Shown here in pieces: positions 2,867 through 21,448 of a stretch of 64,000 bases of DNA. This DNA is from Deltaproteobacteria bacterium (lineage in GTDB: Bacteria > JAGRBM01 > JAHCIT01), in the NCBI GenBank assembly GCA_026129095.1, contig JAHCIT010000008.1:7021-71020 (forward strand). The letters are read 5' to 3'. The stretch's first letter is position 1; every line of letters starts with the position of its first letter. The notes under the pieces were generated by a model that was not told the DNA's origin, searched no databases, and was given only the letters and a program-made list of their open reading frames with translations. The position numbers and the translations under genes were made by a program.

Positions 2867-4096
2867 TCAGAAGAACTCGGCAAACGTCTCCTTCATTCCC
2901 CGCGAGATCCGCGAGAAGAATCCGTCGCCACTGGCACGGTTGCGCGCCCCGAAATTGCGGTACTTGCTGCCATAGAGCACAAGCCCGATCGGCGTGGCGA
3001 ACCGGGGATCGTGGACCATGTCCACCAGCCCCCCGACGCCCGCCGGCTCGCCCACCCGCGCCGGCAGGTCGAGTATCTGCTCGGCAAGATCGGCGATGCC
3101 GGGCAGCGAGGCCGTGCCCCCCGTGATGACGACACCCGCCGCCAGCAGGTTCTTGAAGCCCGAGCGGATCAGCTCGCTGTCGATCAGGGTGAAGAGCTCG
3201 TCCACACGCGGCTCGATGATCTGCGCCAGTGTGCGGCGTTCCACCCGCCGGGGCGGACGGCCGCCGACGCCCGACACCTCGATCATCTCGTCGTCCCCAA
3301 CCATGAGGGCGCGCGCGCAGCCGTGCTGGAGCTTCACCTTCTCGGCCTCCTGGAGCGGCGTCCGCATGCCCTGGGCGACGTCCTTGGTGATGTGCGTGCC
3401 GGCGATCGGCACCACCGCCGTGTGGCGGATCGCGCCGTTCACGTAGATGGCGATGTCGCAGGTGCCGCCGCCAATGTCGAACAGGGCCACGCCCAGTTCC
3501 TTTTCGTCCGGCGTCAGGACCGATTCGGCAGAGGCGATCTGCGTCAGCACGATGTCGGAGACATGGAGCCCGGACCGGTGGCAGCTTTTCATGATGTTCT
3601 GCACACTGGAGGCCAGCCCCGTGACCATGTGGACCTTCGCCTCCAGCCGCACGGCGCTCATCCCCAGCGGGTCGCGCACGTTGTCCTGGTCGTCCACGAT
3701 GAAGTCCTGCGGGAGAATGTGGACGATCTCCCGGTCCGCCGGGAGCGGCACGGCGCGGGCCGCTTCGACGACACGCTGGATGTCCACGTCCCGGACCTCG
3801 CCGTTCTTGACGGCAATGAGGCCCGTCGAATTGAACCCCTTGATGTGGGAGCCGGCGATGCCGGCGTAGACCGACTCCACCTTCACTCCCGACATGGTTT
3901 CCACCTCGTAGAGGGCGTGTTTGATCGCCTCGACGGTGTTCTCGATGTTGACGACCACGCCCCGCGAGAGGCCCCGCGAGGGCGCACTCCCGACGCCGAT
4001 CACTTCCAGCTCGTTGTCCCGGACCTCGGCCACCACGCAGCACACCTTCGTGGTGCCGATGTCGAGTCCCGCCAGGATCTCATCCCTTCTTGCCAT
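2867..4096 (-). CDS. ftsA: cell division protein FtsA (actin-like ATPase)
   Basis: 409 aa; N-terminal GLDIGTTKV and DIGGGTCDIAIY motifs; sits between ftsQ and ftsZ. Confidence 0.93.
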   Translation of the reverse strand: MARRDEILAGLDIGTTKVCCVVAEVRDNELEVIGVGSAPSRGLSRGVVVNIENTVEAIKHALYEVETMSGVKVESVYAGIAGSHIKGFNSTGLIAVKNGEVRDVDIQRVVEAARAVPLPADREIVHILPQDFIVDDQDNVRDPLGMSAVRLEAKVHMVTGLASSVQNIMKSCHRSGLHVSDIVLTQIASAESVLTPDEKELGVALFDIGGGTCDIAIYVNGAIRHTAVVPIAGTHITKDVAQGMRTPLQEAEKVKLQHGCARALMVGDDEMIEVSGVGGRPPRRVERRTLAQIIEPRVDELFTLIDSELIRSGFKNLLAAGVVITGGTASLPGIADLAEQILDLPARVGEPAGVGGLVDMVHDPRFATPIGLVLYGSKYRNFGARNRASGDGFFSRISRGMKETFAEFF

Positions 4097-19650: not shown

Positions 19651-20076
19651 TCATGCCTTGCCGTTCAGCGCGGCGGCCGCCTCGTACCGGTTCCATACTT
19701 CCGGATCCCACAGCTCGATCCGGTTCACGCTGCCGATCGCCACCAGCGAGGACGGCAGCGCCACCTGCCGGCGCACATCCTGCGGAATGAGCAGCCGCCA
19801 CTGCTCGTCGAACTCGGCGTCCACGGCCCTGGCGGTGAGCAGCCGCAGTTTCATTCTTTCCTCGCCGCTCTCGATCACGTTCAGACGGTCGGCGAACTCC
19901 ATCAGCTTCGGCGCATAAGCCGCATACGGGATCAGGTCGAGGCAGGGCATGTTCTGGTCGCGGACGATAAACACCTTCCGCTGCGGATCGCGCTCCAGGA
20001 AGCTGCTCCGCCAGCGGGACGGAAGGGCAATGCGGCCCTTGCCGTCCATGGTGATTTCGTGCTGACCCGTGAACAC
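19651..20076 (-). CDS. mraZ: transcriptional regulator MraZ
   Basis: Track ORF begins at TTG 20107-20109; GTG at 20074-20076 gives N-terminus (M)FTGQHEITMDGKGRIALP, which matches the canonical MraZ N-terminus in length; an in-frame ATG at 20047-20049 is a shorter alternative. Confidence 0.85.
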   Translation of the reverse strand: MFTGQHEITMDGKGRIALPSRWRSSFLERDPQRKVFIVRDQNMPCLDLIPYAAYAPKLMEFADRLNVIESGEERMKLRLLTARAVDAEFDEQWRLLIPQDVRRQVALPSSLVAIGSVNRIELWDPEVWNRYEAAAALNGKA

Positions 20077-20150
20077 TGACTGTCGACACCCTTCCCCTGA
20101 ACTCCACAAGGGACTCCAGGCAGTTTCGAGCCAATGGGATACAGAGGGAT

Positions 20151-20180
20151 TTTATCCCACTTTATTCCACTTTTGTCCAT
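20151..20180 (-). promoter_or_regulatory. candidate MraZ operator: three head-to-tail 10-bp repeats
   Basis: Forward strand TTTATCCCAC / TTTATTCCAC / TTTTGTCCAT; on the coding strand GTGGGATAAA, GTGGAATAAA, ATGGACAAAA; exact 10-bp period; 75-104 nt upstream of the mraZ GTG; a fourth copy at 20353-20362. Confidence 0.5.
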
Positions 20181-20353
20181 TCTCTTCAACTTCGCCCCCG
20201 CTGTCAAGAATTCCCTTAAGTATTTCAGATAGTTATGCATAGAAACGACAACCTTACAGAAACCGAAAGCAACCATATACTGGGCTTATATATGCCGTAA
20301 ACCACAAATTATAGTGGCCAAATATGAAGCAGGAATGAGCGCGTTATGGAGAT

Positions 20354-21448
20354 TTATTCCACTTTGGTGGAAGGAGAGCCGGTCCGGGCGGCGGCGATGC
20401 GCTCATGGATGATGAACGGCCCCACCAGAACGAGCGTGGCGATCTGCTGAACCAGCACGAGCGTGGCGAGCGCGATCAGCTTGGGTTCGGCGATCTCCCA
20501 TGAGGGCGGAAGGAAGTAGATGAGCGCCGCCTCGCGGGAACCGGTGCCAAGGAAACCCGCCGGCACGATCGTGGCAATGCCCAGCACGGCCCAGATGACC
20601 AGCACCTGGTCGGGCGAGATGCCGATGTTCACCGCCCGGCAGAAAAGCCACAGGGCGGCGCCGATCGGCACGAAGGCGAGCAGCGTGAGGACGACGATCC
20701 GGACCCGGTCCATCCGGGTACGGCCGCGAAGCCAGACGCCGATCTGGAAAAGCATCTGCCGCAGCCCCTTGTGGTGGGAGGTTTCGGCCCCTTCCGGGGC
20801 CAGCAGGTAGCGCGGCACCAGCAGGAACCCGGCGAAGATCGCCGCCGGCGCCAGCAGGATGAGCGGCCCGAGCCGGTTCAGCTGCAGGTCAGGATAGCCC
20901 AGCTTCGAGAAGGGAAAGACGACCGACTCCGGCAGCGCGGCGCATCCCAGGCCCAGCACAATGAGCACGCCAGCGGAATCGAAAAACCGCTCGGCGACAC
21001 CGGCGGCGATGGAGGCGGTCCAGGAATGGCCCTCCTTGCGGAGATCCACGCACTTGAGGAAATCGCCGACCCGGCCCGGTGTCACGACGCCCCAGAAGGC
21101 GGCCTTGAGGAAACTGTAGATATGGCGCCCGAACCGGCCTGGTTCCGCCGGGGCTCCCTCGCCCGGATGGGCAAAGACCGTCCAGCGCACCGCCCGGAAC
21201 CCCTGGTAGAACGGTGTCATGGCCATGCCGAGAAGCACCAGCACGAGGTCCGCGCCGCGAAGCTCGGCCATCACCTTGCGGATATCGAACTTGAACAGGA
21301 ACCAGACGAAGATGCCGACGCCGGCCACCTGCACGAACCGCTGGAACACGGGATTATGAAGGAGCCCCTGCTTCTGCGGAAGACCGGCCTCGGCCGTGAC
21401 TTCCACGGAAGCCCCGCCCTCCCCGGCTTTTCCTGAATGTTCAGCCAC
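20354..21448 (-). CDS. polytopic membrane protein, lysylphosphatidylglycerol-synthase TM-region-like (function unknown)
   Basis: 364 aa with about eight hydrophobic segments; family assignment from memory, low certainty; its stop codon lies inside the fourth MraZ-box-like repeat. Confidence 0.6.
   Translation of the reverse strand: MAEHSGKAGEGGASVEVTAEAGLPQKQGLLHNPVFQRFVQVAGVGIFVWFLFKFDIRKVMAELRGADLVLVLLGMAMTPFYQGFRAVRWTVFAHPGEGAPAEPGRFGRHIYSFLKAAFWGVVTPGRVGDFLKCVDLRKEGHSWTASIAAGVAERFFDSAGVLIVLGLGCAALPESVVFPFSKLGYPDLQLNRLGPLILLAPAAIFAGFLLVPRYLLAPEGAETSHHKGLRQMLFQIGVWLRGRTRMDRVRIVVLTLLAFVPIGAALWLFCRAVNIGISPDQVLVIWAVLGIATIVPAGFLGTGSREAALIYFLPPSWEIAEPKLIALATLVLVQQIATLVLVGPFIIHERIAAARTGSPSTKVE

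Follow-up and report, generated by a model that had tools for sequence, protein, structure and literature searches.

We analysed a window of 64 kb (64,000 nucleotides) from a metagenome-assembled genome that NCBI labels as Deltaproteobacteria bacterium (assembly GCA_026129095.1, contig JAHCIT010000008.1, positions 7,021 to 71,020; coordinates below are those of the window), which carries on its reverse strand a complete cluster of division and cell-wall genes (dcw) with a genuine mraZ gene at its head. Our subject is the DNA just upstream of mraZ, where three direct repeats very probably form the operator of MraZ itself and where a lone further copy of the repeat lies about 190 bp from the middle one, in this genome as in two relatives.

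The mraZ locus and its three-box array

The mraZ gene is followed on the same strand by genes for RsmH, FtsL, FtsI, MurE, MurF, MraY, MurD, FtsW, MurG, MurC, Ddl, FtsA and FtsZ, in that order, as assigned by Pfam (where further names in the cluster are FtsL/DivIC, PBP and Mur ligases). FtsI as encoded in the window does not differ from NCBI MCW5830007.1, which is annotated as a penicillin-binding protein. Read from the GTG at 20076, MraZ has the canonical N-terminus MFTGQHEITMDGKGR (MFTGQHEITMDGKGRIALP), and its residues K13, R15 and R94 align with Lys13, Arg15 and Arg86 of the Mycoplasma genitalium protein when compared with solved MraZ chains (9qlr, 1n0e); these residues fall in two DXXXR motifs, D11-G-K13-G-R15 and D90-E-Q-W-R94. 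The intergenic region upstream is AT-rich, with 38–41% G+C against a background of 63–72%. The features on which the argument turns are the following:

19651..20076, reverse strand: coding sequence of mraZ, 141 aa from a GTG start (Pfam MraZ PF02381, 2.1e-20, in two stretches)
20151..20160, reverse strand: predicted MraZ box 3, GTGGGATAAA, a match to both pattern and weight matrix
20161..20170, reverse strand: predicted MraZ box 2 (the middle box), GTGGAATAAA, weight-matrix score 14.9 bits
20171..20180, reverse strand: predicted MraZ box 1, ATGGACAAAA, which shares its first two bases with the end of the predicted -10 hexamer
20179..20184, reverse strand: predicted -10 hexamer GAGAAT, 17 nt past the -35 hexamer (consensus scan)
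20202..20207, reverse strand: predicted -35 hexamer TTGACA (consensus scan)
20353..20364, reverse strand: distal box, a single unit reading AAGTGGAATAAA that lies 192 bp upstream of box 2

Along the mraZ strand, positions 20180 to 20151 read ATGGACAAAA GTGGAATAAA GTGGGATAAA (on the forward strand TTTTGTCCAT, TTTATTCCAC, TTTATCCCAC), and the three 10-bp direct repeats that a first-pass annotation had placed here, 75–104 nt upstream of the GTG, proved exact on re-reading in sequence, coordinates, phase and distance. The cores are ATGG, GTGG and GTGG (TGGA, TGGA and TGGG when read from the T), such that box 1 is without the first G; box starts are spaced by exactly 10 and 10 bp, leaving 6-nt A-rich spacers between the 4-nt cores. 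Tandem Repeats Finder calls an array of period 10 (20151–20179), and a repeat search groups 20151–20166, 20161–20176 and 20353–20368 as one family, the last of these at the distal copy. The three-box pattern RTGGRNWAAARTGGRNWAAARTGGR has a single mismatch-free match in the window against 0.00 expected from 100 dinucleotide shuffles, its two extra matches with three mismatches being the same array shifted one unit out of register; the two-box pattern AAGTGGRN5RTGGR likewise matches once, against 0.03 expected.

On the mraZ strand there is one strong sigma-70-like match, and the array overlaps its end: TTGACA-17-GAGAAT (20207..20179), which fits the consensus at 10 of 12 positions; sites at that level number two in the region against 0.4 expected. 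The predicted -10 ends at 20179, inside box 1, so that its final AT supplies the first two bases of that box, and we infer a transcription start near 20172, about 7 nt downstream of the -10 and within box 1, which would give a 5′ untranslated region (UTR) of about 95 nt. A second promoter beside the distal box was considered and rejected: a perfect TATAAT lies nearby (about 20314..20309), but it has no -35 and the hexamer is not kept in the relatives.

Relatives proved scarce, and sampling of the lineage is very thin. Among 5.8 billion proteins, searches with single proteins and with profiles returned only two diverged relatives with more than 50% identity, P0002 and P0006 (a third search of the same proteins was dominated by Acidimicrobiales); MraZ gave only two distant matches, at 33–35% identity, among genomes that each represent one GTDB species; and a JGI metagenome scan gave no match with a two-sequence alignment as query and, with a three-sequence alignment, eight loci at 30–33% identity that are usable as outgroups only. 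Five contigs carry an identical MraZ with upstream DNA that is 100% identical and hence uninformative. The comparison thus covers three independent lineages: the window, locus L003 (MraZ P0002, 51–55% identical to the window protein), which has the same synteny of LPG_synthase gene, mraZ, rsmH, ftsL, ftsI and murE, and locus L009 (MraZ P0006, 58–59% identical). When their upstream regions are aligned, a comparison that the first-pass annotation had proposed, both keep three boxes at the same place and in exact phase: ATGGAACTAA GTGGAATAAA GTGGAGTAAT in L003, where box 2 is the same as in the window, and ATGGAACGAA ATGGAATAGA TTGGGATAAA in L009. Within the cores only TGG is invariant across the three lineages, and box 1 has ATGG in all three (ATGGA in L003 and L009). 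Also kept are the TTGACA, the 17-nt spacer and a predicted -10 that overlaps box 1 and ends in AT (GATTAT in L003; GAATAT in L009, at three of six consensus positions and below the scan threshold). Box 1 probably reads ATGG in consequence of its A and T doubling as promoter positions -8 and -7.

Known MraZ operators and probable autoregulation

The operator of Escherichia coli consists of three direct repeats of TGGGN with 5-nt spacers. Its promoter Pmra, whose sequence we read directly from strain K-12, is TTGACA-17-TAAACT followed by cctttca and then by GTGGGAAATT GTGGGGCAAA GTGGGAATAA (box 3 being GTGGGAATAA), and so resembles the window in its TTGACA -35, its 17-nt spacer, its three boxes at an exact 10-bp period between -10 and mraZ and its nearly identical box sequence. 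The two differ in that the boxes begin 7 nt after the -10 in E. coli but inside the predicted -10 here; that the core is TGGG there and TGGA or TGGG here; that box 3 stands about 15 nt from the start codon there, whereas the predicted 5′ UTR here is about 95 nt; and that the lineage of the window keeps a distal box at about 190 bp. In Bacillus subtilis, three GTGG[A/T]G repeats with 4-nt spacers are required for repression. Like ours, this operator sits in the mra promoter, has three repeats of GTGG type with a period of 10 bp, and forms a triple repeat that is unique (in the genome there, in the window here); it is unlike ours in spacer composition and the sixth base; no distal site has been described for it.

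More generally, most bacteria have three MraZ boxes and some Mycoplasma four, with the start site within box 1 just past the -10 (PMC12957436). The operator of M. genitalium comprises three AAAGTGT-N3 units and then AAAGTGG, and cryo-electron microscopy of its complexes with MraZ places the base contacts at Lys13, Arg15 and Arg86 (PMC12957436). The window shares with it the AAAGTGG unit, the 10-bp period, a -10 just upstream, a start inside box 1 (predicted here) and the same base-contacting residues. It is set apart by having three contiguous boxes and not four, a fourth copy 173 bp off, and a box 1 without the first G. Among distant mraZ loci, nearly all have three to five boxes at a 10-bp period beside the promoter, in either orientation.

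The reading of the repeats as this organism's MraZ boxes, as the first-pass annotation had predicted, is well supported because core, period, number and position match experimentally defined sites, and because the array is conserved in two relatives; the position at the dcw cluster's head and the contact residues agree with it. We therefore regard the three repeats as very probably the MraZ operator, and the operator itself is an ordinary member of the well-known MraZ autoregulatory type. By analogy with the solved systems, MraZ would negatively autoregulate the promoter of the dcw cluster (mraZ-rsmH-ftsL-ftsI-murE…ftsZ) through the three boxes, with neighbouring subunits of the oligomer, as in the cryo-electron microscopy complex of M. 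genitalium, inserting their ‘cradle’ motifs cooperatively in one major groove after the next along a single helix face. Bound in this way, MraZ would cover about -8 to +22 and bar RNA polymerase from the -10 and the start, such that transcription would drop as MraZ rises; at box 1 it would directly mask the essential -7 T. Repression as the sign of regulation is suggested by the position of the boxes and by analogy.

Several observations weigh against this reading. The second DXXXR motif of MraZ is DEQWR, the usual form being D-Q-G-R. The -10 matches the consensus at only four of six positions, and its L009 counterpart at three of six, below the scan threshold. Box 1 has ATGG in each of the three lineages and the L009 cores are ATGG, ATGG and TTGG, and thus the first G of the GTG contacted in M. 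genitalium is not conserved. Conservation is judged on only three independent lineages. Finally, MraZ of Mycoplasma gallisepticum has been reported as an activator when overexpressed (cited in PMC12957436).

This last report raises the possibility that MraZ binds the boxes but activates the dcw promoter here, and the weak -10, GAGAAT, is typical of activator-dependent promoters. We consider activation improbable, as the boxes lie across the predicted start and reach into the -10, where a bulky oligomer should exclude RNA polymerase, and as MraZ of E. coli, B. subtilis and M. genitalium represses from the same position. Less probable still, to a degree that we give it little weight, is that the array serves another regulator (such as a response regulator with 10–11 bp direct repeats), that it is phased A-tract or curved DNA, or that it is an element of the mRNA 5′ end: the spacers are indeed A-tracts in helical phase, boxes 2 and 3 would be transcribed from a start near 20172, and a hairpin (GGGAT-AAA-ATCCC) involves box 3, but core, period, copy number and position match experimental MraZ sites in three phyla, and in other phyla, at nearly all the distant loci examined, the boxes accompany mraZ in either orientation, which fits a site for a protein on DNA and not an RNA element. 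A known RNA element was ruled out, as Rfam has no family in or near the region.

The distal box and its possible functions

A further copy of GTGGAATAAA lies at 20362..20353, separated from the three-box array by 173 bp and matching unit 2 with 94% identity over 16 nt, 13 nt of them exact. It reads GTG GAA TAA, the Val-Glu-stop of the upstream gene (20354–21448), which encodes a 364-aa membrane protein of the LPG_synthase_TM family; position, identity, gap and overlap with the stop are all as first annotated. In the window this box also falls within a perfect palindrome, TTCCAC-CAAA-GTGGAA (20357–20372), located in the last codons of the upstream gene and not conserved in L003 or L009.

Taken within the window, the octamer AAGTGGAA shared by the distal and middle boxes is not significant, with two occurrences against 0.81 expected and 19 of 100 shuffles reaching two. 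The distal copy is significant because of its conservation across genomes, and only for that reason. In a k-mer test, AAGTGGAA is the only 8-mer common to the upstream intergenic regions of the window, L003 and L009; it occurs at the distal position and in the middle box in the window and L003 and at the distal position only in L009, where the middle box reads AAATGGAA, unlike AAGTGGAA. (A 10-nt weight matrix missed the distal box of L009, which has a different spacer, and the k-mer test recovered it.) An alignment anchored on the distal box has eight consecutive columns identical in the three lineages, with flanks of 0–1 identities per 10 columns. The distance from distal to middle box is 192 bp in the window, 188 bp in L003 and 190 bp in L009, or 18.3, 17.9 and 18.1 helical turns of 10.5 bp each, while its offset from the upstream stop codon varies, from overlapping in the window to +36 nt in L009 and +86 nt in L003; the box therefore appears to be positioned relative to the operator. 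Coding constraint as the source of its conservation was rejected, since the box is intergenic in L003 and L009. From its presence 188–192 bp from the middle box in each lineage, we conclude, with a confidence that is reasonable for a comparison of only three lineages, that the distal copy is not the chance match that the first-pass annotation had allowed for.

What such a box might do is a separate matter, for which we rank an auxiliary or looping site first, an independent single-box site second and a non-functional remnant last. The first of these readings we put forward tentatively, at rather less than even odds. The distal box, about 18 turns away and on the helix face of box 2, might engage subunits left free in the ring-shaped oligomer bound at the array, and a loop of the AT-rich intervening DNA would strengthen or sharpen repression. 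Weaker single auxiliary sites at an integral number of helical turns from a main operator are familiar from lac O3/O2, araO2 and gal OE/OI, each with a multivalent repressor; the likeness is one of analogy only, and the MraZ oligomer is a ring of 8–12 subunits and not a tetramer of dimers. Bridging by one oligomer is physically plausible because the intact MraZ octamer ring can occupy a single box and because the wild-type oligomer, unlike a monomeric mutant, still binds boxes split by a long spacer (PMC12957436). The case for looping is made from conservation and helical phase, and it must accommodate a distance that varies by 4 bp, or about 0.4 turn, which counts against it. In the papers that we read we found no mention of distal MraZ boxes or of looping by MraZ.

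The same 4-bp variation would be of no concern if the distal copy acted apart from the proximal array with no loop, whether by blocking or slowing read-through transcription from the upstream gene or by serving as a reservoir. Read-through into mraZ is possible, as neither the window nor L003 has a predicted intrinsic terminator on the mraZ strand in the stretch that separates mraZ from the upstream gene, and the ability of the MraZ octamer to sit on one box (PMC12957436) would serve an independent site as well as a loop. It is the distance to the operator that is kept, however, and not that to the upstream stop, which points to a relation with the promoter and not with the upstream gene, and we think an independent site unlikely. 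Lower again, and improbable in our view, is a non-functional copy, whether a chance match or the decaying remnant of an ancestral duplicated operator. It would account for the unremarkable count of AAGTGGAA in the window, and three lineages were compared; but it would have to explain how the only 8-mer common to the three intergenic regions survives as an isolated island, outside coding sequence in L003 and L009, and why, in a post hoc test, 4 of the 11 other clades have distal pairs or arrays where 0.27 would be expected.

That test examined distant mraZ loci for same-strand pairs of GTGG or CCAC, 10–11 bp apart and 40–320 bp upstream of the proximal array. Four of the 11 clade representatives have such a pair, against 0.27 expected from dinucleotide shuffles (Poisson-binomial P ~3.5e-5, to be read as post hoc since these data also gave rise to the hypothesis). 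A coding-sequence control had a pair in 2 of 13 loci, which makes the shuffle null optimistic. A distal GTGG-N6-GTGG pair is found in L011, L021 and L022, of a clade that contains a Gemmatimonadota metagenome-assembled genome (MAG), at positions from -257/-247 to -259/-249. No distal pair was found in the Acidimicrobiales-type loci or in L015, L017 and L018. With the distal box of the window lineage, these pairs suggest, as a possibility that we put well below even odds, that MraZ operators here and in several unrelated lineages may be bipartite, with a proximal array and one or more auxiliary boxes 100–250 bp upstream that would be looped to it by idle subunits of the ring.

The distant loci differ among themselves in several respects. 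In L010, L011, L021 and L022, four or five proximal boxes read CCAC on the coding strand and stand directly before the GTG start, an orientation opposite to that in the window, E. coli, B. subtilis and Mycoplasma. The distal pair of L011, L021 and L022, being GTGG, is opposite to the proximal array, while the distal boxes of L010, being CCAC, have the same orientation as its proximal boxes. The most extreme distal cluster among the loci examined is that of L016 (LFFM01000055.1), where about ten CCAC boxes form five pairs from -405 to -303 relative to the mraZ start, spaced by 10 bp within a pair and by 22–25 bp between pair starts, about 170–270 bp upstream of a short proximal operator. In E. 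coli K-12 (L020, NC_000913.3, 89391–89400), a lone GTGGAAAATA (GTGGAAAA), oriented like the MraZ boxes, lies upstream of the middle one at a distance of 209 bp; as a single 6–8-mer it could be chance.

Further conserved elements and a possible role of the MraZ ring

Two further elements of the intergenic region are conserved:

Window 20252–20270, reverse strand (L003 about 3815–3833; L009 about 288–306; L010, L011, L021 and L022 at -205 to -208 from the start codon): TTCGG-type repeat
20119..20150, reverse strand: conserved block after box 3, ATCCCTCTGT ATCCCATTGG CTCGAAACTGCC, in which two ATCCC units continue the 10-bp phase

The first, upstream of the -35 but short of the distal box, is a direct repeat of TTCGG/TTACGG with an 11-bp period; the window has GCTTTCGGTTTCTGTAAGG, L009 has GCTTACGGTTTGCTTACGG and L021 has TCTTCGGTTTTCCTTCGGA. 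All seven loci of the window lineage and the Gemmatimonadota-MAG clade carry it, and none of the 12 others, E. coli among them, does. Its place in the window is nearly halfway from the distal box to box 2, and inside the putative loop it may be the site of a second regulator or of an architectural protein.

The block after box 3 contains TCCCAT, which is ATGGGA inverted, and against the box matrix the inverted ATGGGATACA reaches 9.2 bits. The stretch TCCCAT(T)GGCTCG.AAC.GCC is the best conserved outside the boxes in the three lineages, with TGGCTCG common at +36/+37, and in L012, L013, L014 and L016, too, partial boxes of this inverted kind come after the last box. The block could be an inverted MraZ box, the site of another protein or an RNA element.

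At the level of RNA, the small hairpin of box 3 and the bases that follow it (20146–20158) has counterparts in GGAG-TAAT-CTCC (L003) and GGGA-TAAAC-TCCC (L009), such that the hairpin is kept while sequence and register change; it could be a stem-loop at the 5′ terminus of the mRNA. A second hairpin, CCTGGA…TTCAGG (20096–20120, reverse strand), stands just before the Shine-Dalgarno-like GGGGAAGGG and is matched by CCCGAAA…TTTCGGG in L003 and CCCGAAAC…GTTTACGGG in L009, with some compensatory changes among the three sequences. The whole mraZ 5′ UTR folds with z = -2.6.

Of these results, the three-box operator is of an already-known kind: it extends a textbook-level site to one more sparsely sampled lineage, which is useful for annotation and unsurprising. 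A modest addition to this comes from the distal box, which is conserved and may be of wider occurrence. MraZ rings have 8–12 subunits, known operators engage only three or four of them, and the role of the ring was left open in a 2026 structural paper (PMC12957436). If true, bipartite looping would give the 8–12-subunit ring a function, and the conserved, phased distal box, together with the distal pairs and arrays in other clades, offers a specific and inexpensive way to ask whether the ring joins one DNA site to another.

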